A DNA stretch of 64,000 bases from an uncultured bacterium (lineage in GTDB: Bacteria > Verrucomicrobiota > Verrucomicrobiia > Limisphaerales > UBA8199), in contig CAVVMW010000005.1 of NCBI GenBank assembly GCA_963749495.1, positions 320,001 to 384,000 on the forward strand, written 5' to 3'. The notes beneath the pieces were generated by a model. The model did not search any database. It was not told where the DNA came from and saw nothing but the letters and a program-made list of their open reading frames with translations. Below are positions 1 through 58,625 of this stretch, piece by piece. The first letter of the stretch is position 1. Every line of letters starts with the position of its first letter. Both the position numbers and the translations under genes were made by a program.

Positions 1-147
1 CTCCTGCTTGGCCAGAAACTCGAGGAAAACCTGCTGGCTGATGTCATCGACCAAGCCGGGCCAAGGCGCCAGTTTGAAGGCCAGCGCCCTTACGAAGGCG
101 TGATGTGCCAGCACGAGCTGGGCGACCTTTATCTCGTTCGACAACAT
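1..147 (-). CDS. ECF sigma-70 factor, N-terminus (runs off window)
   Basis: ATG at 147 reads MLSNEIKVAQLVLAHHAFVRALAFKLAPWPGLVDDISQQVFLEFL, resembling ECF sigma region 2 (DDIxQQVFL). Confidence 0.65.
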   Translation of the reverse strand, partial: MLSNEIKVAQLVLAHHAFVRALAFKLAPWPGLVDDISQQVFLEFLAKQE

Positions 148-277
148 AACGTTCTCACCATTATCCCGCACCGACCTTCAAAACCTGACATGAAATGTCA
201 ATAATCCATCCTTCGCATCGCGGTATTCCGGTCCTGTTGGCTTCGGGTTCCGGGACGTCCTCCTTCGGGCTGGCGCC

Positions 278-1837
278 TCATTGACGCCGCGTGCCTGCCC
301 CACCAAGTGGTGCGGTATTGGAACCGCCTTGCAGATCGCGATCCAGGGCCGCCCCGTCGAACGGAACAACGATGATCTTACTGCCGTGGGTATCATTGCC
401 CCGTTCCTGTTCCTTGGGAACATCAATGACCGCGAAAGTAAAATGGGTAACATGGCCATTTTGGAGGAGCACGCCGGGACGTTCCATTTTCTCCCAATGA
501 TTGACGGTCCCATCGGTGTACCGCACGAAGTCCTTCGTCGGATCGTAAGCCAGTCCTCTGAACGTCCAGTTCTTGATGCCGTCGGGTGAGGTCAGGTGGT
601 AGGCCTTGCGGCCGCTCCAGCTATTGACCACGATGTGGCACAGGTTCCCGCTATACCACACCACCGGATCTTCCAGATTGCGCAGTGGAAGGCCGGGAAT
701 CTGCGGATAAATGCTCGGTCCCTGGACCGTGTACGGCCCCAGGATGCCGGCCTTGCTGAGCAAGATGGCGCCGGACCGCGGCACGATCATAAAGTCGCCA
801 TCCGGACGAACCATCATGCTCACGTTCGACATTCGCCCCAGGCGGCTGAACTCGTTTGTGGCGACCTTGATCGAACCGAGAAACTCCCAAGGGCCATCCA
901 GCGACTCAGAGACAAAAGGGCTCTGGATGGGCATTGGCAGGAAATAGTCGATCAATGTCTTCTCGGCGGCGGGAGCAGGCCGCTGGCCTGGCAGGCCCGG
1001 CGCGCGGGCGATCACCTGGAGTTCCGGCTTGCGCACGCCGAACTGGTCCATCGGGAAGTTCACGAAGCCCAGGGCGAGGGCGGGGGAACCGTCCCTCACC
1101 CGGTAATCGCCCTTGGCGGGGTCCGCGAATTGCGCGTCGGCCACGAGGGAATGTTCGTCCCGGCCGCTCTGGCGTTGCAGGTTGATGGCAGGGGCGTTGG
1201 TCGCGCCGGTCCGGTGCAGAAGGTTGAAGTCCATTTCCTTGCCGGTGATCCGCCAGGTAAAGTCGCCCCAGAGCGCGGGGTGCATGGCGTGATAATAGCC
1301 GCCGGTCGGATCGGCCCAACGCGCGGCGCGATTCGTCGAGATCGCATCCGCAGCGAAGCCGTCGAAATACTGCGCCTTCGGATCGAAGTTCGGATAGCGC
1401 GCCAGGATTTGCCGCTCGCCGTTGACGAAGACCTCCTCGGTCCGCAAGTCCCCCGGCACCTTCGCCTGTAAAATGCCGCCTTGGTAAGGACGCCAGTCGA
1501 GCTTGTCCAGCCTAACGCCGCCGCTGATGATGGGCCGCTCGTTTTTGTAGGCTTGGAAAATGACCGGGGCCTTCTCCGTGCCGGAATCCTGGGCGGTGAA
1601 CACGAGTGGTGCGGACAAATAGTAAATGCCGCCCCGCAGGAACACCGTTCCCGGTTGTTGCCGCACGGCCTGCTGAGCCCGTTGGGGGCTGGCGAAGGGT
1701 CTTTCCAGCGTGCCGGGGTTCGCGTCGTCGCCAGTGGGTGCCACGAAGTATGGCCGCCCGAACGCTGTAAAGGCCATCAGGCCAAGCGACCCGCTCAGCC
1801 AGAGCAACCGGCGGAGGATCGCGATCTTTGGTTTCAT
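278..1837 (-). pseudogene. Secreted carbohydrate-active protein chimera: parallel beta-helix N-terminus joined to GH43-like propeller C-terminus, internally deleted
   Basis: Signal peptide MKPKIAIL..., YFVAPTGDDANPGT..PFAS motif, abrupt junctions, C-terminal LEDPVVW...KMERP motifs. Confidence 0.6.
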
Positions 1838-2039
1838 GTGGAAGGCTATTTCCGCTGAAAAACTGAGTAGCCATAGATCCCAAAGGCTCTCATGTAAACT
1901 CCGTCCCGCAAGCTCCGGCGCCAGGTCTGCCACTCGTGTGCGGTGCCCGGCGATTCGTAGAACACGGTCTTGATTCCCGCCTTCTCCAGCGCATCGCGGT
2001 AGTTCTTGACACTGTCGCACATCCGCTTTTGCTCCGCTG

Positions 2040-2336
2040 AACGGTAGGCAGGCGGATCTGGCCGCGAACGGTCCGCACCGCTTCGTCCTGGTCACGAATC
2101 GGCAGCGTGATCCACTCCTCCCAGGTCACCGGGCGGACCTTGGAAGTGCGGAGTGCAGAGTGCGGAGTGCGGAATGAATCGAACTCCAGATCGGGTAGAT
2201 CTTCGCGCTCGATTTCCAGGCCGGTGGCCACGTTGGTGGCCATCATGCAGAACGCCTCTTGAGGCGTGCGCACGTTGATGGCCTGCCAGTTGCGGTTCAG
2301 CACCAGCACGGTCGCTTTTGTCAATGTACTGCTCAT
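2040..2336 (-). pseudogene. HNH endonuclease (McrA-like) N-terminal part, truncated before the HNH motif, with in-frame heptamer-repeat insertion
   Basis: MSSTLTKATVLVLNRNWQAINVRTPQEAF...VRPVTWEEW...IRLPTV; the insert FRTPHSALRT comes from heptamer repeats at ~2145-2175. Confidence 0.75.
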
Positions 2337-2483
2337 AAAAAGGGGTCGAGGGTCGAGTGACGAGGACCGGAAGCGCGCTGCGGCCGAGCTTCCCTCGTGG
2401 CCCTTCATCTGCCCAAGGTGTTTGTTCTTTGTTGAGGGCCTTAGCCTTTAGCCTTCAGCCTTCAGCCTTTGGCCTTTGAAGCA

Positions 2484-2558
2484 TGGCTGCCTCGCCTGGA
2501 ATTGCACCAGGTCCTTCGGTTTCAGAGACCGACGCGCTCCTGATTACACCACGAGGCC
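2484..2558 (-). tRNA. tRNA-Gln(CTG)
   Basis: Cloverleaf; anticodon arm TCGGT-CTCTGAA-ACCGA; T-loop TGCAATT; encoded CCA. Confidence 0.9.
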
Positions 2559-2627
2559 CGCCGTCGCGCTTTGCGCTAAGGCGCGGCAAGCGATTGGCCC
2601 GCCGAGCCGTAGCCGGCAGGCGAAGGC

Positions 2628-2701
2628 TGGTCGCTCGGGAAGGTCCTGCCCCTCCGATTTCTGGGTGTAGGCCAGACGTGATGCTATTTCACCACCGAGC
2701 C
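2628..2701 (-). tRNA. tRNA-Val(TAC)
   Basis: TCTGG-CCTACAC-CCAGA; T-loop GGCAGGA; ACCA end. Confidence 0.85.
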
Positions 2702-2811
2702 TTTCGAATGCGGAACTCGGAATGCGGAGTGCGGAGTGCCAAACGAGAACGAAGGCTGCTTGTGCGCGCGCCCCCATTCCGCACTCTGCATTCCCCACTC
2801 CGCACTGGGAA

Positions 2812-2885
2812 TGGCTGCCTCGCTTGGATTCGCACCAAGATCATCGGGGTCAAAGCCCGGCATGCTGCCGTTACACCACGAGGCA
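2812..2885 (-). tRNA. tRNA-Gln(TTG)
   Basis: Acceptor TGCCTCG/CGAGGCA; loop CTTTGAC; GCCA end. Confidence 0.92.
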
Positions 2886-2993
2886 AGGAATCGGCCTGCC
2901 AAGCCGTAGCCCGGCACGTCACAAATGCTCGCCTCCGCACTAGCGTGCTTCGGCGCAGCAGCCCTCGCCACCCGTCGCGCGTGTGGCGAAGGC

Positions 2994-3070
2994 TGGTGGA
3001 GCCGGAGGTAGTTGCAACCTCACCAAACCCGATTAAAAGTCGGGTGCCGGTCTGCTGTGGCTTCGGATCC
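2994..3070 (-). tRNA. tRNA-Lys(TTT)
   Basis: CCCGA-CTTTTAA-TCGGG; GAGGT-TGCAACT-ACCTC; ACCA end. Confidence 0.88.
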
Positions 3071-3077
3071 AGGAAAA

Positions 3078-3162
3078 TGGTGGGCGAGAGAGGATTTGCA
3101 CCTCCAAGGCTCACAGACTCTCGATCTGTGGGGTCTGCTAATTCCCTCTGAACCACTCGCCC
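3078..3162 (-). tRNA. tRNA-Leu(GAG), atypical fold
   Basis: Acceptor GGGCGAG/CTCGCCC; ACAGA-TCGAGAG-TCTGT; extra GGTTCAG before D arm; short variable region GAGCCTT. Confidence 0.85.
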
Positions 3163-3171
3163 AAAGAAAAG

Positions 3172-3247
3172 TGGTGCTCCCGGCCGGAATCTCACCGGCA
3201 ACCTCAGCCTTCGGAGGGCCGCGCTCTGGTAATTGAGCTACAGGAGC
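3172..3247 (-). tRNA. tRNA-Arg(CCG)
   Basis: CGGCC-CTCCGAA-GGCTG; T-loop TGAGATT; ACCA end. Confidence 0.9.
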
Positions 3248-3343
3248 AGTCCTAATGTGGAATTCGGAATGCGGAGTGCGGAATAAGAATGTGCACAGGG
3301 CTCTGCACACTCCGCATTCCGCACTCTACACTCACCACTTGAA

Positions 3344-3414
3344 GGGGTCTCCTGCCGGTGCTGCCCCGGCCTGGCTTGTTTACAAAACGAGCCTGCAGGC
3401 TGCCGCAAGGAGAC
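3344..3414 (-). tRNA. tRNA-Thr(TGT), short D arm, no intact encoded CCA
   Basis: Acceptor GTCTCCT/AGGAGAC; loop TTTGTAA; GCCGG-GGCAGCA-CCGGC. Confidence 0.7.
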
Positions 3415-3452
3415 GAGATGGCCTGCCGAGCCGTAGCGCTCGGCGCGAAGGT

Positions 3453-3527
3453 TGGTCGCAATCCCCAGTGCTGCCCTGGGCACGGCTGGCTTATGAAACC
3501 GGCCTGAGCGCTAGCCCTTTCAAGTGC
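3453..3527 (-). pseudogene. tRNA(CAT), Met/Ile2-like, 5' acceptor strand lost or degenerate
   Basis: Loop TTCATAA, CCCAG-GGCAGCA-CTGGG, ACCA end; 5' end runs into a heptamer repeat. Confidence 0.6.
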
Positions 3528-3612
3528 AAAGTGGAGAATGCAAAGTGCGGAATGCACCGGGCGCGGGCGTAGCGATGATAATTCTGCACTCCGAATTCCG
3601 CATTCTGCACTG

Positions 3613-3652
3613 ATGGCGGGTGGGTCTGCTCTTCCCCGTGAACCACGCGCCG
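3613..3652 (-). pseudogene. 5' half of a fifth atypical tRNA-Leu
   Basis: CGGCGCG-TGGTTCACGGGGAAGAGCAGACCC matches the 5' halves of the four atypical Leu tRNAs; 3' half replaced by heptamer repeats. Confidence 0.65.
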
Positions 3653-3658
3653 AGAAGA

Positions 3659-3769
3659 TGGCGTCCCTGACCGGCTTCGCTCCCGCCTTCGCTGGAAAGC
3701 TACGGCGGGGCAGGCCGGTGATCTCCTGCATGAGAGGCAGGCATTTTGTCTGGACTACACCACAGGGAC
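3659..3769 (-). tRNA. tRNA-Glu(CTC) with 33-nt palindromic insertion in T arm (3682-3714)
   Basis: Acceptor GTCCCTG/CAGGGAC; CCTGC-CTCTCAT-GCAGG; ACCGG[insert]AGCGAAG-CCGGT. Confidence 0.88.
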
Positions 3770-3775
3770 TGAAAA

Positions 3776-3852
3776 TGGTGAGGGCAGGAGGCTTCGCACC
3801 CCCAACCTGATGCATGTGACGCATCCGCTCTGGCTGGCTGAGCTATGCCCTC
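3776..3852 (-). tRNA. tRNA-Val(CAC)
   Basis: GATGC-GTCACAT-GCATC; T-loop TGCGAAG; ACCA end. Confidence 0.9.
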
Positions 3853-3888
3853 AAAATGGCTCGCCGAGACGTAGCTCCGAGCGAAGGC

Positions 3889-3964
3889 TGGTGGGGGACG
3901 AAGAGTGCTGCCCTCTTTGCCTCTCGGATGTCAGACGAGCGCTCTCCTGGTGAGCTACGTCCCC
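3889..3964 (-). tRNA. tRNA-Val(GAC)
   Basis: Loop CTGACAT; AAGAG-GGCAGCA-CTCTT; ACCA end. Confidence 0.85.
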
Positions 3965-3970
3965 AACAAA

Positions 3971-4020
3971 TGGAGCGGGTGGACGGAGTCGCACCGTCGA
4001 CTCGGCCTTGGCACGGCCCT
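3971..4020 (-). pseudogene. 3' half of tRNA-Gly(GCC)
   Basis: GGCC-GTGCCAA-GGCC, GACGG-TGCGACT-CCGTC, CACCCGC-TCCA; 5' half absent, GIY-YIG gene abuts. Confidence 0.75.
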
Positions 4021-4030
4021 TGGAGATAAA

Positions 4031-4297
4031 CTAGCTCCCCAGGCTCTCCGCTCCGCCCCAGAAGTGTCGTTTTGCGAAGGCATGGCCGGACCCGCTCTTC
4101 AGGTATTTCTCGAAGTGCTGGGCCTGTTCAAGGGACTCGAACGCAACGTACACCTTGAGCGTCCAAGGTATGAACTTGGACGTGTGCGGACATTTACCGG
4201 CGTTATGGTCTGCCACTCGTTGACGGAGGTCTGCCGTATGACCGATGTACCTCTGGTCGCGGTGGCTCAAGCTCTGGATGACGTATGTGTAAAACAT
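4031..4297 (-). CDS. Small GIY-YIG nuclease
   Basis: MFYTYVIQS...RYIGHTADLRQRVADHNAG...PW.L..Y..F...A..FEKYLKSGSGHAF. Confidence 0.92.
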   Translation of the reverse strand: MFYTYVIQSLSHRDQRYIGHTADLRQRVADHNAGKCPHTSKFIPWTLKVYVAFESLEQAQHFEKYLKSGSGHAFAKRHFWGGAESLGS

Positions 4298-4680
4298 ATT
4301 GCGGCCTGCCATCCATAGCTTGGAACCCGTTCCGTGGAAAGTCCTCCTTCGCCGAGCCTACGGAGGACATCCTCCGTTTGGCCCCCTCGCCTGGCTCGGG
4401 TTCCGAGCGGAGGATGGTGTCCCCAGCCGATTAAATCCAGAACGAAGAATGCAAAGTGCAGAACGCCCCACTCCCTCGCCATTGTCGAAAACCCAAATCC
4501 ATTTTGCATTCTTCATTCTGAATTCTTCATTTCAAAGGGCGGCCTGGATTGCGGGTCCGGTTCCGCTCGCTGGGAAAGGAGGCCGTTTCCTGCTGCTTGT
4601 GCCGCCAGCGCAGGAACTTCTGAAACCGGGCAAAATTCGTTCGGAGCGAATTTTGATAGGTTTTGTCCTCGAAGAACAAA

Positions 4681-4768
4681 TGGCGGAATGCCGTGGACTT
4701 GCACCACTTGCCTGGAGGCACGCACTCGTTAGCACCGAGGCCCGGTTCGCTTGCCCGGTTGGCATTCC
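4681..4768 (-). tRNA. tRNA-Ser(GCT) with 8/4 acceptor/T-stem fold
   Basis: 8-bp acceptor GGAATGCC/GGCATTCC, G73-CCA, 4-bp T stem GTGG/CCAC, long V arm TGCCT-CC-AGGCA, loop GTGCTAA. Confidence 0.88.
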
Positions 4769-4808
4769 AGAAATGGCCTGCCGAGCCGAAGCTCGACAGA
4801 GCGAAGGC

Positions 4809-4892
4809 TGGTCGGCGTGGGGAGACTTGCGCTCCCAAGGCTGTTCGGGTTTGAGCCGAACCGGTCTGCTATTCCCGGTAAACCACACGCCG
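4809..4892 (-). tRNA. tRNA-Leu(CAA), atypical fold
   Basis: TTCGG-CTCAAAC-CCGAA; extra GGTTTA before D arm; variable region CAGCCTT. Confidence 0.88.
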
Positions 4893-4924
4893 GCCCGCCG
4901 AGCCGTGGCCCGGGGAGCGAAGGT

Positions 4925-5010
4925 TGGTCGGCGCCCCGGGACTTGCACCCGGAAGGCTCAGCGATTTTAAGTCGCTGGGGTCTGCTGATTCCCGCTGAAG
5001 CCAGGCGCCG
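4925..5010 (-). tRNA. tRNA-Leu(TAA), atypical fold
   Basis: AGCGA-CTTAAAA-TCGCT; extra GGCTTCAG; variable region GAGCCTT. Confidence 0.88.
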
Positions 5011-5123
5011 AGAAAATGGCCTGCCGGGTCGGAGTTCGGAGCGAGGGTCGGATGCCCGCCTACGCCTCAAAGGCAGGCTTCGGCGAGACAGTCTTCGTTC
5101 TCCGCTGCGCTCCGAACGAAGAC

Positions 5124-5207
5124 TGGTGGGCATGGAGGGACTTGCACCCCCAAGGCTGCCAGATTCTGAATCTGGACCCTCTGCTATTCGGGTTGAACCA
5201 CATGCCC
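5124..5207 (-). tRNA. tRNA-Leu(CAG), atypical fold
   Basis: CCAGA-TTCAGAA-TCTGG; extra GGTTCA; D stem ACCC/GGGT; variable region CAGCCTT. Confidence 0.88.
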
Positions 5208-5216
5208 AGTTGAAAT

Positions 5217-5292
5217 TGGTGCTCCCGGCAGGACTCTCACCTGCAACCGGCGGTTCGAAGCCGCCCGCTCTGATATTTTGAGCTACGGGAGC
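5217..5292 (-). tRNA. tRNA-Arg(TCG)
   Basis: GGCGG-CTTCGAA-CCGCC; T-loop TGAGAGT; ACCA end. Confidence 0.92.
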
Positions 5293-5378
5293 CCTCCAAA
5301 TGCAGAGTGCGGGATGCAGAGTGCAGAATGACGCCCTTCCGTTCTGCGTCCCCCATTTTGGATTATTCAGTTGAAAAT

Positions 5379-5825
5379 TGGGGCCGGTGGGGAGACTCGC
5401 ACTCCCGTGGTAACTGTTCAGGTGTTGGACCAGTGCTGGCTTCGACGCCAGCGCCGGGCCCAGCCAAGCCGTTGTCCCGGAGGGACAACCCGAGAATAGC
5501 CCGGCGCTTCAGCGCCGGGTCCGACGCCCTAAAAACCCCGCGTCCCGACAGGGACGCCTGAGGCTCAGCACCGCAAGAGGCCAGCCGATTCAGCCGTCCC
5601 TCCGGGACGGGCGGGAGATTAGACCGCTTTCCCCGGCGCTGAAGCGCCGGGCTATTTTCGGGCTGTCCCTTCGGGACAACGACGGCCCTCGAACCAGAGC
5701 GCGTCCCGAGAGGCCCCGGCGGCGATGTGGCAACCCATGTGCCGAGACCTGAACAGTTACCTCCCGTGGGACGAATTGCCCGGCAGTTTACGAAACTGCT
5801 GCTGTCGCTGCTGAGCCACGCCGGC
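5379..5825 (-). pseudogene. tRNA with anticodon CGT (Thr) and long variable arm, interrupted by a MITE
   Basis: Removing 5410-5760 plus one duplication copy restores GCAGT-TTCGTAA-ACTGC, V arm GGGC-AATTC-GTCC, GGGAG-TGCGAGT-CTCCC, CCCA end. Confidence 0.85.
5410..5760. mobile_element. Non-autonomous IS66-like MITE (351 bp) carrying nested REP-like palindromes
   Basis: Terminal inverted repeats GTAACTGTTCAGGT...ACCTGAACAGTTAC; 8-bp duplication CTCCCGTG at 5402-5409 and 5761-5768. Confidence 0.88.
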
Positions 5826-5933
5826 CTCCGAAATGCGGAATGCAGAGTGCGGAGTGCGGGATTGCACAGAGCCGTCACAACAACGCTTGTGCTCCTCATT
5901 CCGCACTCAGCACTCCGAACTCCGCACTGAAAA

Positions 5934-6007
5934 TGGTGGGTCGCCACGGTGCTGCCCCGTGCTCTGCGGTTTAAGAGACCGCTGCATCGCTGCAATGCTT
6001 GCAACCC
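5934..6007 (-). tRNA. tRNA-Lys(CTT)
   Basis: GCGGT-CTCTTAA-ACCGC; T-loop GGCAGCA; ACCA end. Confidence 0.9.
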
Positions 6008-6010
6008 AAC

Positions 6011-6085
6011 CGCGACACGAAGGCGGAGTTGAACCGCCGCAGCCAGATCTGTGAAGTCCTGGCCGGCACCGGTGTTCGCGTCGCG
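6011..6085 (-). ncRNA. tRNA-like element with 11-bp closing stem and canonical T arm, no CCA
   Basis: CGCGACGCGAA/TTCGTGTCGCG; GGCGG-TTCAACT-CCGCC; GCCAGG...TCTGGC arm. Confidence 0.65.
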
Positions 6086-6090
6086 TGAAA

Positions 6091-6165
6091 TGGAATCCCG
6101 TGTGAGAGTCGCACTCACCTGCGCGGTTTTGCAGACCGCTGCCTGGGCTGCTCGGCCAACGGGAC
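6091..6165 (-). tRNA. tRNA-Cys(GCA)
   Basis: GCGGT-CTGCAAA-ACCGC; U73-CCA; T-loop TGCGACT. Confidence 0.92.
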
Positions 6166-6273
6166 ATCTGAATGCGGAGTGCGGAGTGCGGAGTGCAGAG
6201 TGCAGAGTGCGCAATGTCTGCGGTGCTGCCCCTCAGGCATTCCGCATTCTGCACTCCGCACTCAGCATTTGGT

Positions 6274-6700
6274 TCACGCTGCCCGCACAAAGTCCGAGAT
6301 GACGGCTGGAACGCTGGTGTCGAAACCAACCACGTCCAGCATCCCGCGGTCGTTCGGGTCGGCCAGGGTGAAGCCACTTAAATGAAGAGTTAAGAATGCA
6401 GAATGAAGAACGGAGGACGCCCTCAGCCGCCGTTGGTCTTGATTCCTCATTGTGCATTCTTCATTCTGCATTCATGTGGGCCCAGACCATCGGCAGCGAG
6501 CAATCCGTGCCGCCCATCGGGATCGCACGGACCTTCTCGATGACGCTTTCCAGGCGCATTCGGGGCGAGAGGGCGACCCGGGTAATGCCTGACTCACCGC
6601 CACCCCGCTGGCCGCCGTGACCGCTGGCGGCTGCGCTGAAGGCGATGATCTCGCACTCGGGGTCGGTTGCCGCCGTCACCAGGGCCATGGCGATGGACAA
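6274..6700 (-). pseudogene. TROVE/Ro60 (Rsr-like) protein, C-terminal vWA fragments only
   Basis: AMALVTAATDP...LSPRMRL...PMGGTDCSLPMVWA and GFTLADPNDRGMLDVVGFDTSVPAVISDF, separated by a heptamer hairpin. Confidence 0.88.
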
Positions 6701-6702
6701 GT

Positions 6703-6820
6703 GGCGCCGTAGGGTGGGGATCTCCTTACGGGAATCGAACCCGTCCGGAACTTGAATCCGGGCGCTCTCCCATGGCGAGCGTCCTCCCCGTGCTGGAGGA
6801 TGACCTGCGGACTTCGGCCC
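6703..6820 (-). ncRNA. Candidate Y RNA-like (YrlA-type) RNA
   Basis: Directly upstream of the TROVE remnant; ends GGGCCGAAG...CTACGGCGCC; inner GGTCATCCT/AGGAGATCC; canonical T arm ACGGG-TTCGATT-CCCGT. Confidence 0.6.
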
Positions 6821-6828
6821 ATGCGAAT

Positions 6829-6936
6829 TGGTCAGGAAGCCGGGATTCGCACCCGGACCGTCCGCTTCACAGGCGGAGATGCTGTCCACCCTCCGCAGTG
6901 CTGCTACGGAGGACGGGCTGTTACACCACAATCCTG
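6829..6936 (-). tRNA. tRNA-His(GTG) with 33-nt palindromic insertion in D loop (6885-6917)
   Basis: TCCGC-CTGTGAA-GCGGA; removing the insert gives D arm GGTGTAACAGCAGCATC. Confidence 0.85.
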
Positions 6937-6941
6937 GAAAA

Positions 6942-7019
6942 TGGTGCCCCCAGGTGGACTCGCACCACGATCCTCCTGCTTCGCGGGCAGGCGTGCACAT
7001 TCTCTTACACCTTGGGGGC
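6942..7019 (-). tRNA. tRNA-Arg(GCG)
   Basis: Acceptor GCCCCCA/TGGGGGC; CCTGC-CCGCGAA-GCAGG; ACCA end. Confidence 0.85.
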
Positions 7020-7110
7020 CTTGGAAGTGCGGATTTCGGAGTGCGGAGTGCGAAATGGCTGACGATTCCGGTGCGCCTCATTCCGCATTCCGCATTCTGC
7101 ACTCTGCACT

Positions 7111-7191
7111 TGGAGCGTCCGTGGCCGGACTTGCACCGGCTATGCCCGGCTTGAAGGGCCGGCTGCTCGAGCCTGCTTTGCATTCACGGAC
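7111..7191 (-). tRNA. tRNA-Glu(TTC)
   Basis: Acceptor GTCCGTG/CACGGAC; CCGGC-CCTTCAA-GCCGG; 3' end G-CTCCA (irregular). Confidence 0.82.
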
Positions 7192-7323
7192 AAATTGTTC
7201 ACCGTGGAAGGCTGGAACCACGGGGATTTCTGAACTCAGAATGGAGAATGAAGAGTGCAGAATGTCGAACCCTGCTGGCTCATTCTGCACTTTGCATTCC
7301 CCACTCTGCATTTGAGAGGCGCG

Positions 7324-8467
7324 CTAACGCCGGAGCGCGCGCGTCTTGTAGGTGAGGAGCGGCCGGAAGGTGGCGATAACCGAGATGAGTCCGGCGTCCG
7401 CCAGGTCCTGGACCACGTCCTCGATGCTCTTGTAGGCGGCTGGGGCCTCTTCGTAGAGCAACTCGCGCGGCTCGCAGATGACTTGGCCCCCCAGCGGCGT
7501 TTGGGTCAACTGCTGCCGGCCAAACCGTTCGCGCATGCGCAGGCGGCTCTCACTCCGGGCCCGACCTGCGGCCGGCACCGTGGGCCAAAGACCAGGCGTG
7601 GCTGACGCCATCTCCAATGGGCTTCACGAGGTAACTGAGCGACCCGCGGGAGCCAGGGATCATCACCGGCTCCCGTTCGGCTGCCACGGCACCCTTCCGA
7701 TGCACCCAGACCGCTTCGCCAGGGCTGCCCCTCACCCCGTCCCTCTCCCCATCGGATGGGGAGAGGGTGGCCGCAAGGCCGGGTGAGGGGACGCGAGCGA
7801 TGCTGTTGTGGCAGCCGTCCCAGAGGCACTCGGCCTCCGCTCCCAGCGCCTCGACGAATCGTCGAGCGATGAGCGCCCGGTTTGTCTTGGCCCACCTCAG
7901 GGCCAAGTCATGGTCGCGGAGATAGCCCGCCGCAGCAAACGACTCGGGATCGGAGCCTTCGGCCTGATGCTCTTCCGCGTACGCCCGCAGGACCGATTCG
8001 CCCAGACCGCGCGAGCCGCTGTGGACCAGAACCACCAGTTGCTGTTTGCCCAGGCCCAACCGCCTGAATGCTGCTGCGTCCAAGACGGCCTCGACCTTCT
8101 GCAGTTCGGCGAAGTGATTGGCGCCGCCGATGGTCCCCAGCGCTTCATCGAACTCCGTGGATTCAAGCTCCGCTACGGCGAGAACCTCGCCCACATCGCC
8201 TTCCCACGGATGCTCCAGGTCAAAGCGAAGGTCGGCCCACCCGCCTACGCGCTCCGCGCTCCGGCGCGGCAGGTCTGTCTTGAACAGGGCCGTGCCGCAA
8301 CCGATGTCGCCGCCGATGAGGTGGGGATAAATGACGCCCTTGGTGACGAGGGCGGCGCCCACCGGGCTGCCCTTGCCCGGGTGCAGGTCCGGGAAACCGA
8401 CCGCCAGGCGTACACTTTCGAGTCGTGCCGCCGCATAAAGCTGGCGAACCGCTTCGCCTTCGATCAT
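7324..8467 (-). CDS. rtcB: RtcB-family RNA ligase (PrfH-coupled RtcB2 type), frameshift near 7560, in-frame palindrome insertion
   Basis: PDLHPGKGSPVG, GDIGCG, LGTIGGANHFAE, VHSGSRG, HN, HRKGA, IPGSRG, SLAHGAGR, EEAPAAYK, LLTYK motifs. Confidence 0.93.
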
Positions 8468-8585
8468 CTGCCTGCCCTCCGCAAAATGTAGAATGAAGAA
8501 TGCAGAATGAAGAATGCCCCGGATCACGCACCGCAGGGCGCGGACGGAGATTCTGCATTCTCCATTCTGCACTCTGCATTTGAAC

Positions 8586-8692
8586 TGGCTGCCAGGGTTG
8601 GACTCGCACCCGCCGTCGCTCGGAGCTATGGCGGGGCAGGCCAACACCTAACGGCTTAACAGGCCGCCGTGCTGCTTTGACACAACCTGGCA
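8586..8692 (-). tRNA. tRNA-Asn(GTT) with 32-nt palindromic insertion in T arm (8609-8640)
   Basis: Acceptor TGCCAGG/CCTGGCA; GCGGC-CTGTTAA-GCCGT; GTTGG[insert]TGCGAGT-CCAAC. Confidence 0.88.
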
Positions 8693-8694
8693 AT

Positions 8695-8752
8695 TGGCGC
8701 TGCCGGCAGGAGTTGCACCCGCATGAGTTCGTTTAGAAGACGAATGCCCCTT
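8695..8752 (-). pseudogene. tRNA-Arg(TCT), 5' portion missing
   Basis: TTCGT-CTTCTAA-ACGAA; GCGGG-TGCAACT-CCTGC; GCCA end; 5' part replaced by heptamer repeats. Confidence 0.75.
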
Positions 8753-8859
8753 CCAAGTGCAGAGTGAAGAGTGCAGAGTGCGGAATGCCGCGGTCGGGAG
8801 CGAGTGGCTCCAGCCTCTGGCCATTCTGCATTCCGCACTCCGCACTCCGCATTCAAGAA

Positions 8860-8948
8860 TGGTGGGAGGTGCTGGTAACGCTCCAGTCGTCGCTTCCGAC
8901 AGTTGTTTTTGACGCCGGTTTTACGGACCGGCAGTCGGAACACCTCCC
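8860..8948 (-). tRNA. tRNA-Tyr(GTA)-like, 8/4 fold, no local D arm
   Basis: GGGAGGTG/CACCTCCC-ACCA; GCCGGT-CCGTAAA-ACCGGC; CTGG-AGCGTTA-CCAG. Confidence 0.78.
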
Positions 8949-9065
8949 GAGATTGGCTTGCCGCGCCGTAGCTCGAAGCCGCGCGAATGCACGCGGGCGG
9001 TACGGCCCGCCTTCGCTTCGCTACGGCGCGGCAGCCTCGCTCTCAGACTGGCTTCGAGCGGAGGC

Positions 9066-49873: not shown

Positions 49874-49955
49874 ACACCAACTCCCCGGGCTTGGAACCGA
49901 CGCGCCGCATTCCCGCCCGCCATTCCTGACGAGCGTCACTCTGCGATTTATCGGC

Positions 49956-57582: not shown

Positions 57583-58625
57583 TTCATGGGAGTATGAATC
57601 CTCTTGCGCTACTTTGCGACCATCAAAACGAGGTTTCTTTGTGATCTCTGCGCTCTTTGCGGTTAAATCTGATAGGGGCTCTAAGGGATTTGGTCGGCAC
57701 AGGGATACTGCGGACGTCGGACATGACAGGGCTTGTGACCTGTCCGCCGCATTAACCGGGATCGCCGGCCACTCTGCGATTATGGGGTTGCCACGCTGGC
57801 CGGTTTCGGCACATTCAGGCCATGCGGAAGCGGGCTTATCTCGCCGCTGCCGCATTACAAGTCGCCCCTGATTCCTTGCGCGCTTGTCCTCTGCGATTCC
57901 TGCCCTGCTTCTTCTCGGCGAGCAGCTTGAAGGCGGCCAGATCGTCCTCGGTCAGACCCAGGGCAACCAGAGCTTGCGCACGGGTGATCGCCTGCGCCGA
58001 CATCTTGGGCTTGACCATCCGCACGGTGCCCGTGCTCTTGCGCATTTCGCCCAGATCAGGGATATACCCCTGCTGCGCGGCAGATTGCAGCCAGGCCGTG
58101 GCGAGGATCAGGCGGTTTGGCCAATCGATGGTTGACTGTATAGGACCCATTGGAGAAAACTCCGTCCGTATGCGCAAATCTAGGCCGAGACGGTGTATGA
58201 AATGGCGGAGGAGAATCACGTTCGTGCTACTGCTCTTGGGACTCAGCGCGCTGGCCAACTCGGCGTCGGCCAGTGCCGTTGGTCCCTCGGCCCAAGCCAC
58301 AGCCTCCGATAACGGGACGCTTCCCTGCAATTTGGCTATTTCAGCCCGGATTGGCCCAAGGGACTCGGGGACGGTTCGTTTGACCTGCTGGGCAACCCGC
58401 CCCAGATCCTTCAGTTCCCGGCGGCCAGCGTCATGTGGCTGCGCCAGGACGTGCAGGAAGCGGATTTGGTCGCCGAGTCGCTCTATGACCCCGAGAGCGT
58501 CTTCAGCCTGAGCGAGGACCGCAAACCCGTCCCTCTTGCGGCGTAACCGTTCACGGGTTTCGACGCACCGCTTGAGCACATGATCTGAGCAGGCCGTAGA
58601 TTTTGCTGGCGTCACGGAGCGGCCC

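Follow-up and report, generated by a model that had tools for sequence, protein, structure and literature searches.

The window analyzed here, a stretch of 64,000 nucleotides (nt) from an uncultured bacterium of the order Limisphaerales (Verrucomicrobiota; contig CAVVMW010000005.1, positions 320,001 to 384,000), carries a tRNA gene array with four tRNA-Leu genes that lack the long variable arm and in which the segments connecting the arms are lengthened and complementary to each other. The four nucleotides following U8 (GGYU) pair over a long range with AGCC in the variable region, and comparative evidence indicates that this helix is real. We consider it likely that these paired-connector genes encode leucine tRNAs that form a structural type of their own, one that moves with the tRNA arrays of phages and mobile DNA. 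The four genes, the fragment of a fifth and the proposed connector helices are listed below, with scores from the Rfam tRNA model and from the covariance model R1 described further on.

5124..5207 (−): tRNA-Leu(CAG), paired-connector, 84 nt with encoded CCA; R1 100.1 bits, Rfam tRNA 32.9 bits
4925..5010 (−): tRNA-Leu(UAA), paired-connector, 86 nt, helix GGCU/AGCC; R1 93.5 bits
4809..4892 (−): tRNA-Leu(CAA), paired-connector, 84 nt; R1 105.3 bits
3078..3162 (−): tRNA-Leu(GAG), paired-connector, 85 nt, anticodon loop UCGAGAG (C33); R1 92.4 bits, Rfam tRNA 28.5 bits
3613..3652 (−): 5' portion of a fifth gene, comprising acceptor strand, UGGUUCA and D hairpin and broken off past the D arm; from the sequence
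5196..5199 with 5154..5157 (−): Leu(CAG) connector helix, GGUU pairing with AGCC; from the sequence and covariation
4999..5002 with 4955..4958 (−): Leu(UAA) connector helix, GGCU pairing with AGCC; from the sequence
4881..4884 with 4839..4842 (−): Leu(CAA) connector helix, GGUU pairing with AGCC; from the sequence
3151..3154 with 3108..3111 (−): Leu(GAG) connector helix, GGUU pairing with AGCC; from the sequence

All four genes start with a 7-bp acceptor stem, followed by U8, GGUU (GGCU in the UAA gene) and 2–4 nt more, which gives an acceptor-to-D connector of 7–9 nt compared to 2 nt (positions 8 and 9) in a canonical tRNA. The D hairpin has a 3–4 bp stem and a 10-nt loop (GAAUAGCAGA, AAUUAGCAGA or similar) and is abutted, without a spacer, by the 5-bp anticodon stem, whose 7-nt loops expose the anticodons GAG, CAA, UAA and CAG. 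The variable region comprises 7 nt, (C/G)AGCCUU, and not the hairpin of more than 10 nt that characterizes class II tRNAs; in the helix, the 4 nt following U8 are paired with the 4 nt that precede the final UU of this region. The T arm has a 5-bp stem and the loop UGCAAGU, CGCAAGU or UGCAAAU, and is followed by A73 and an encoded CCA. Acceptor stem (7 bp), anticodon arm and T arm (each a 5-bp stem with a 7-nt loop), discriminator and CCA are canonical. The genes do not belong to type I tRNA-Leu, which combines a short variable loop with an otherwise ordinary cloverleaf, as their 7–9 nt 5' connector pairs with the variable region, nor to the allo-tRNAs with their 8/4 or 9/3 branch and long variable arm, as they have a 7/5 branch and no arm. 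The fragment at 3613–3652 resembles the first ~33 nt, i.e., the first third, of an intact CAG-type gene of the relatives (L009). An earlier note, made from the letters of the window, had placed four tRNA-Leu genes and a fragment here, with a lengthened linker instead of the 2-nt one and (C/G)AGCCTT instead of a long variable hairpin; the sequence bears out this description on each point, and all five lie on the minus strand.

Standard tools largely overlook these genes. ARAGORN finds none of the four, and the Rfam tRNA model (RF00005, gathering score 29) does not report the CAA and UAA genes even at E ≤ 10; its matches to the other two span 5127–5207 and 3081–3162 and leave the D region unaligned. 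The model R1 was built from eight copies with the proposed helix deliberately excluded. Because this helix-free model scores the four genes at 92–105 bits (E of 1e-19 to 4e-23 in the 11.4-Mb source genome), they are not chance matches. A search of genomes with R1 retrieved homologues in relatives. The source genome, assembled in 31 contigs, holds 12 paired-connector genes in four arrays. Of 150 related genomes, 19 contain full-length copies, namely 12 of the 44 from the same family and seven of the 106 from other families of the order, and a further related genome has one truncated copy. A four-contig genome of the order, G086, has a single gene of the type. A sample of 150 genomes from elsewhere in the phylum gave none at E ≤ 1e-12.

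The strongest support for the helix comes from the way in which its two strands vary together. Alignment A7 comprises 121 matches aligned by R1, which is unable to favour the helix. In this alignment, 96.8% of the helix cells are paired, three of the four pairs have changed on both sides, and 14 cells are changed on both sides; shuffling the columns yields 1.0 ± 0.9 such cells, and none of 500 shuffles reached 14. RNAalifold, unaided, predicts exactly the four helix pairs from A7. At a fixed register, 97 unique genes from genomes and viral records represent 19 haplotypes, in which 65 of 76 cells are paired (shuffled: 53.3 ± 2.2). A metagenome scan, aimed at genes changed in one helix column and using a pattern that required ACCA, added 38 new genes with 22 haplotypes, in which 78 of 88 cells are paired (shuffled: 56.5 ± 3.2). 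Combined, the 135 unique genes (37 haplotypes) have 127 of 148 cells paired versus 97.0 ± 3.7, with 0 of 10,000 shuffles as high; many of the sequences are near-identical across genomes, making independent events fewer than cells, and as the sequences are related, the shuffle counts are not probabilities. Whole-helix swaps include GGUU/AGCC, GGGU/ACCC, GACC/GGUU, GGUC/GACU, GAGU/ACUU, GAAC/GUUU, GCCU/AGGU and GAUC/GAUU, and GGCU/AGCC is a further haplotype; the haplotypes show exchanges among G-C, A-U, C-G and U-A, which are compensatory at pairs 2, 3 and 4. The GACC/GGUU helix belongs to a paralogue in the source genome itself (C7:36441–36524). Genes with the same D loop and no 5' insert have a variable loop of 5 nt; hence, the insert and the lengthening of the variable region go together.

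In a different account, the two strands stay unpaired in the mature RNA and owe their conservation to a signal in the sequence, read by a protein or needed in processing; or the 5' insert pairs locally with the beginning of the D loop to form the hairpin GUUC/GAAU. The near invariance of GGUU and AGCC in the Verrucomicrobiota copies fits such a signal; these copies carry little information, the variation being contributed by phage and metagenome copies. RNAfold likewise picks the local hairpin as the minimum-energy fold of the CAG gene, while it folds the other three window genes with the GGUU/AGCC helix. Nonetheless, the compensatory swaps at pairs 2, 3 and 4 across 37 haplotypes and the preference of RNAalifold for the long-range helix make this account very unlikely. 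The local hairpin itself was rejected as a candidate: it is 80% paired, has no change on both sides and equals its shuffles, 250 of 500 of which score as high.

The remaining stems address the notion that these are decaying, drifting pseudogenes of class II tRNA-Leu from which the arm has been deleted. Some copies fit this notion, namely the truncated copy at 3613–3652, one copy of the source genome with a broken helix strand and an altered T loop, and truncated or insert-bearing copies among the relatives. Yet, across the 121 homologues, the stems taken together stay paired, with many compensatory changes, in 95.3% of 2780 cells, versus 66.8% in shuffles; 19 of 150 relatives as well as complete phage genomes carry the type; and each of the 135 unique genes has a Leu anticodon. 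We therefore hold the pseudogene account to be highly improbable.

Some observations speak against the connector helix. In one UAA subfamily, which also has no encoded CCA, mismatches are frequent at the fourth pair, and a few single mismatches occur elsewhere. In the source genome, the copy C15:359170–359254 has a scrambled 5' strand that is no longer complementary. To these add the relatedness of the sequences mentioned above, a register rule that was fixed after the first variants were known, and the choice of column in the metagenome scan. With these reservations, the pairing of GGTT/GGCT with AGCC that the earlier note had proposed for the four genes is upheld by the covariation in homologues, by RNAalifold and by the failure of the rival hairpin, and so is its broader suggestion of a distinct architecture built around a helix from two distant segments. 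The covariation in homologues on which that suggestion hinged is present (127 of 148 cells versus 97.0 ± 3.7), and the covariation it had seen in the D, acceptor and anticodon stems recurs in the larger set of 2780 cells. Its proposal that the helix replaces the class II arm holds in part: the arm is absent and the helix uses a strand of the variable region, but the same arrays also hold Leu tRNAs with neither arm nor helix.

The elbow of these tRNAs is peculiar as well. The window genes have A18 and G19 in the D loop and U54 (C54 in the CAA gene), G55 and C56 in the T loop, and therefore not the canonical elbow set, which occurs in nine of the 135 homologues (L303:183–266 is a member with this elbow). 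A18 is accompanied by G55 in 126 genes and G18 by U55 in these nine, with no mixed cases (n = 135), although the original scans asked for these two concordant forms alone. Scans of IMG/VR for mixed elbows (U55 with A18, G55 with G18) returned 55 loci and no parsable tRNA. From these sequences, the 18:55 tertiary contact looks like a covarying one, such that the D and T loops would still meet and the L shape would be kept. In the anticodon loop, an arm-less 78-nt Leu(GAG) of the viral record G304 (L388:5221–5298) has the same C33-containing loop as the window's GAG gene.

Several sequence features point to leucine identity. All 135 unique genes carry Leu anticodons (CAG, CAA, UAA, UAG, GAG and a single AAG) and A73, and ACCA is encoded in 80 of the 97 genes that were not selected for it. 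The exclusivity for Leu is partly built in, since the scans used a Leu-type D loop; the genome search with R1, which has no such restriction, nevertheless gave Leu anticodons only among its high-scoring matches. With the D loop numbered, by inference, from an alignment with the class II Leu tRNAs of the source genome, the loop of the GAG gene (AAUUAGCAGA) differs from the class II one (AAUUGGCAGA) by a G18-to-A change, and the paired-connector type keeps U8, A14, A15, G19, C20, A20a and a final U able to serve as U48. Homologues preserve U8, the D loop GAAUAGCAGA and the terminal UU. In Escherichia coli, leucyl-tRNA synthetase (LeuRS) is described as using A73, the hinge (A15:U48, G18G19, A20a) and U8:A14, and neither the anticodon nor the long arm; tRNAs from which the arm has been removed by truncation remain chargeable (PMC9976931). 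The corresponding elements A73, U8:A14, A15:U48, G19:C56 and A20a are all present in the paired-connector genes. As these are kept and the arm is unneeded by the E. coli enzyme, charging by the host LeuRS would be expected from sequence, and the tRNAs would then decode Leu codons and supplement the class II tRNA-Leu of the host.

SerRS needs the long variable arm, and LeuRS does not. The class II tRNA-Ser(GCU) with G73 that is retained in the window's array fits this rule. In the phage record G301, the five paired-connector genes (CAG, UAG, UAA, CAA and GAG) cover all Leu codons, and ARAGORN detects no class II Leu in it, while ordinary class II Tyr and Ser tRNAs are present. The LeuRS domain PF13603 was not found in the three phage records searched; therefore, any charging would be by the host enzyme. 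One carrier genome, G000, encodes a LeuRS (C18:174.3–175.0 kb). At the RNA level, contigs assembled from two libraries span the GAG and CAG genes (≥90% identity), a weak hint that both are transcribed. Small shares of the window (≤0.12) occur in 20 sequencing runs; their contigs leave gaps in the array, which carries no weight either way.

Several facts count against a working leucine tRNA. The pair G18:U55, which matters for leucylation in E. coli (PMC9976931, accessible part), is replaced by A18 with G55 in the window genes, and most members have G55 instead of the near-universal U55. C33 replaces the near-universal U33 in 16 of 18 GAG genes (loop UCGAGAG/A). The type I tRNA-Leu of Streptomyces is not a substrate of E. 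coli LeuRS (PMC6614811), and because of this, it cannot be taken for granted that a host LeuRS would charge the window type. The contigs from the RNA libraries possibly stem from DNA carry-over and show no ends.

The odd A18/G55 elbow and C33 of the GAG genes would also suit tRNA-shaped RNAs that take no part in decoding, i.e., decoys or sponges for tRNA-cleaving nucleases or toxins with the Leu anticodon loops as bait, or substrates or regulators of RNA-repair genes. In line with this, the array adjoins an RtcB gene and a Ro60 remnant, and tRNA arrays have been called putative anti-defence units (PMC12803027, in the text at hand). However, A73, the CCA present in most genes, U8, the final UU and the Leu-type D loop serve charging and not bait; the nearly complete G301 has a full five-anticodon Leu set in the paired-connector form and no other Leu tRNA; and a minority of genes combines the canonical G18/U55 elbow with the same helix. 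We consider a role outside decoding unlikely.

Beyond the relatives of the source genome, pattern scans of IMG/VR recover the paired-connector architecture in viral records, including jumbo phages. Two of these, G304 (147 kb) and G305 (306 kb), have terminal repeats and are rated 100% complete, and G301 (238 kb) is rated 96%; each of the three carries 20–50 tRNA genes. A pattern scan of public contigs gave at least 119 loci, mostly chance matches. Among the matches listed, the titles name Verrucomicrobiota (Limisphaerales, Chthoniobacterales), the exceptions being one 2-kb contig labelled Polyangiaceae and two lake metagenome-assembled genomes labelled Akkermansia. The public scans were confined to fixed D-loop and T-loop motifs and a terminal UU. 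A blastn search with two members against 50,697 GenBank phage records gave no match, at a query length of 84 nt that would miss distant members. Taken jointly with its reading as a distinct type of leucine tRNA, the paired-connector form probably travels with the tRNA arrays of phages and mobile DNA. G304 also contains two tRNAs of 85 and 87 nt (L388:2154–2238 and 2245–2331) with a long variable arm and A73, to which ARAGORN assigns Lys anticodons (UUU, CUU); a class II scaffold with an anticodon other than Leu, Ser or Tyr could reflect recoding or a mis-parse.

In a normal tRNA, the connector from position 8 to 10 runs down along the D stem and that from 44 to 48 runs up, in antiparallel fashion. 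The paired-connector type retains three arms (acceptor, anticodon and T) together with a D arm resembling that of ordinary bacterial tRNA-Leu, while the long variable arm is gone and the connectors are lengthened (U8 plus 6–8 nt; 6–7 nt ending in UU from anticodon to T arm), with four nucleotides of each paired. With this nested 4-bp helix, the cloverleaf has two three-way junctions in place of its single four-way junction. Both connectors appear lengthened just enough for four base pairs, the length of the D stem. Judging from strand topology, the helix probably lies beside the D stem and does not protrude like a hairpin arm, because the joined connectors run antiparallel along that stem. With U8 and U47-U48 at one of its ends, it would take the place of the base triples found in class I and of the arm root of class II, hold the core together and thereby offer a way to keep a stable, LeuRS-competent core after arm loss. 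It is not the sole solution to arm loss, since the same arrays hold Leu tRNAs that have neither arm nor helix. More speculatively, and by analogy, the tRNAs might step in once tRNA-cleaving defences have damaged those of the host: certain of these defences attack the variable arm of class II tRNAs, and a Leu tRNA with no arm would escape such cuts. The locus itself gives such a role no support. We tentatively propose, at somewhat less than even confidence, a working five-helix Leu tRNA from jumbo phages and mobile arrays in which paired connectors beside the D stem replace the base triples or the arm, recognition by the host LeuRS is kept, and the arm and, in most members, the canonical elbow, features read by host defences or other factors, have been removed.

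Arm loss in tRNA-Leu has a precedent. The type I tRNA-Leu(CAA) of Streptomyces coelicolor is armless, coexists with class II Leu tRNAs and receives leucine from the only LeuRS of the cell (Fan et al. 2019, PMC6614811). The window genes resemble it as Leu tRNAs without a long arm beside class II ones, but the S. coelicolor tRNA is an ordinary type I molecule with a short variable loop, for which the accessible part of that report mentions no long connectors or extra helix, and it is encoded by a single chromosomal gene and not by an array. The plain arm-less Leu tRNAs, found as 75–76 nt forms in the arrays of the source genome, share Leu anticodons and short variable regions with the window type; the latter has ~5 nt extra after position 9 and 1–2 nt in the variable region compared to the class I cloverleaf, and these additions pair. 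Canonical bacterial class II tRNA-Leu shares A73, U8, the 3-bp D stem plus G13·A22 and the 7/5 acceptor/T branch, yet has the D loop AAUUGGCAGA instead of AAUUAGCAGA and, unlike the window type, a long variable hairpin, a 2-nt connector (8–9) and a G18G19/U54U55C56 elbow.

Allo-tRNAs, known from phage tRNA clusters and soil bacteria and in some cases with Leu anticodons, are similarly non-canonical, and standard tools miss them or parse them wrongly (Mukai et al. 2017, PMC5389517), but according to the text available, they have an 8/4 or 9/3 branch, a long variable arm and serine identity, in contrast to the 7/5 branch, missing arm and A73 of the window type. Defence nucleases cut the variable loop of class II tRNA-Tyr, and the tRNA-Tyr of phage T5 resists retron-Eco7 through its ‘distinctive variable loop’ (PMC13096335). 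Like the window genes, this is a phage-borne tRNA of a class II family with a changed variable region, which in T5 makes the selective point; however, the part of the source available mentions no helix with the 5' connector, and resistance was tested for T5, while the window genes are known by sequence. In the full-text literature searched, to which subscription journals and supplements did not belong, no helix between the 8–10 connector and the variable region is described. Paired connectors are likewise absent from the accessible text of a review of non-canonical tRNAs (PMC7609411) and of the allo-tRNA paper (PMC5389517), and Rfam holds nothing beyond weak tRNA matches. Arm loss is thus already known, and the helix alone is new.

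The four genes are embedded in the following surroundings.

2484..7019 (−): tRNA array holding the four Leu genes, at least 16 tRNA-like genes on one strand (ARAGORN, Rfam, acceptor/T-arm scan)
4031–4312 (−): open reading frame of 93 amino acids with a GIY-YIG domain, inside the tRNA array (Pfam E 4e-12)
~6470–6703 (−): remnant of a Ro60 vWA domain, adjoining the array
6829–6897 and 6942–7019 (−): tRNA-like genes near the RtcB gene and Ro60 remnant
7550–8647 (−): RtcB RNA ligase, adjoining the array

Within 2484–7019, ARAGORN calls five genes, the Rfam tRNA model more, and a scan for acceptor/T-arm pairs lists 13. L-arrays are described as long tRNA gene arrays of one orientation that are supernumerary and horizontally spread (PMC8421152, in the part available), and the array at 2484–7019 likewise combines many tRNA genes in one orientation with a dispersed housekeeping set elsewhere. 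The genome contains six tRNA arrays alongside its dispersed canonical tRNAs. Near-identical paired-connector Leu genes are present in different families, and the array appears to have been transferred horizontally. The genome's own class II Leu tRNAs (n = 6) cover five anticodons (CAG twice, UAA, CAA, UAG and GAG) and are chromosomally dispersed. Three Leu forms occur in its arrays, i.e., class II with an array-type T loop, the arm-less 75–76 nt form and the paired-connector form of 84–86 nt. Most array genes have a T loop beginning UG(C/A). Nearly all array tRNAs, and not Leu alone, carry G55 in this loop (UGCGAAU, UGAGAUU, UGCAAGU), and several are without GG in the D loop; the non-canonical elbow seems common to the whole array. 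One further tRNA-like gene at 2994–3070 (−), missed by both ARAGORN and Rfam, has the anticodon UUU (Lys), the T loop UGCAACU, an encoded CCA and one acceptor mismatch.

The GIY-YIG open reading frame is reminiscent of SegB, a homing endonuclease encoded in the tRNA region of T4/T6 (PMC13096335; PMC2330249, in the portions available). The RtcB/Ro60 stretch at 6461–8647 (−) may be an RNA-repair module tied to the array; a weak Y-RNA-like Rfam match (E 3.2) lies at 6687–6824. Since glycoside hydrolases and transporters lie further along, the locus is chromosomal DNA with an inserted array and no evident prophage.

Other recurrent elements are found in and around the array. A conserved 3' trailer, CCARCCUUCGC, read on the minus strand, occurs at plus-strand coordinates 2620–2630, 2986–2996, 3445–3455, 3881–3891, 4801–4811 and 4917–4927 and overlaps the CCA end of six array genes (6 matches versus 0.24 expected). 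It is followed by a covarying hairpin and then GGCCAUUU, and the AGCCUU of the Leu variable region recurs in it. The trailer could be a processing signal; no Rfam match to a ribozyme (hepatitis delta virus-like or other) was obtained for the conserved 3' trailers at E ≤ 10 in 1–9000. Insertions of 30–65 nt in the T loop or T arm, an unusual site for an insertion or intron in a bacterial tRNA, are present in the tRNA genes at 3659–3769 (−), L156:719–866, L003:1416–1530 and L019:491–581, some of which are paired-connector Leu genes of relatives. Long imperfect palindromes of GCACTCCGCATTC-like units separate groups of tRNA genes (3256–3334, 5300–5345, 6184–6263 and others) and may be promoter, terminator or repeat elements. 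Two Acido-Lenti-1 RNA motifs lie within the array at 5473–5519 (−) and 5632–5678 (+) (38.3 and 44.7 bits), and two type-P5 twister ribozyme matches lie at 49885–49945 (−) and 57727–57778 (−) (43.0 and 53.1 bits), all above the gathering score.

Few RNA architectures are as conserved as the tRNA core. Natural exceptions such as tRNA-Sec, tRNA-Pyl, allo-tRNA and the mitochondrial forms are informative on how synthetases, the ribosome and processing enzymes read the shape of a tRNA. With its paired connectors and covarying A18/G55 elbow, the paired-connector type would be a natural experiment on this core, and a compact Leu tRNA with an unusual core could serve as a scaffold for orthogonal translation. 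If it is true that the fold escapes nucleases that target class II variable arms, it would represent a structural route of counter-defence beside changes of the anticodon loop. Because ARAGORN misses these genes, the Leu tRNA sets of phages and some Verrucomicrobiota are under-counted, and arguments on the codon supply provided by phages may be off.

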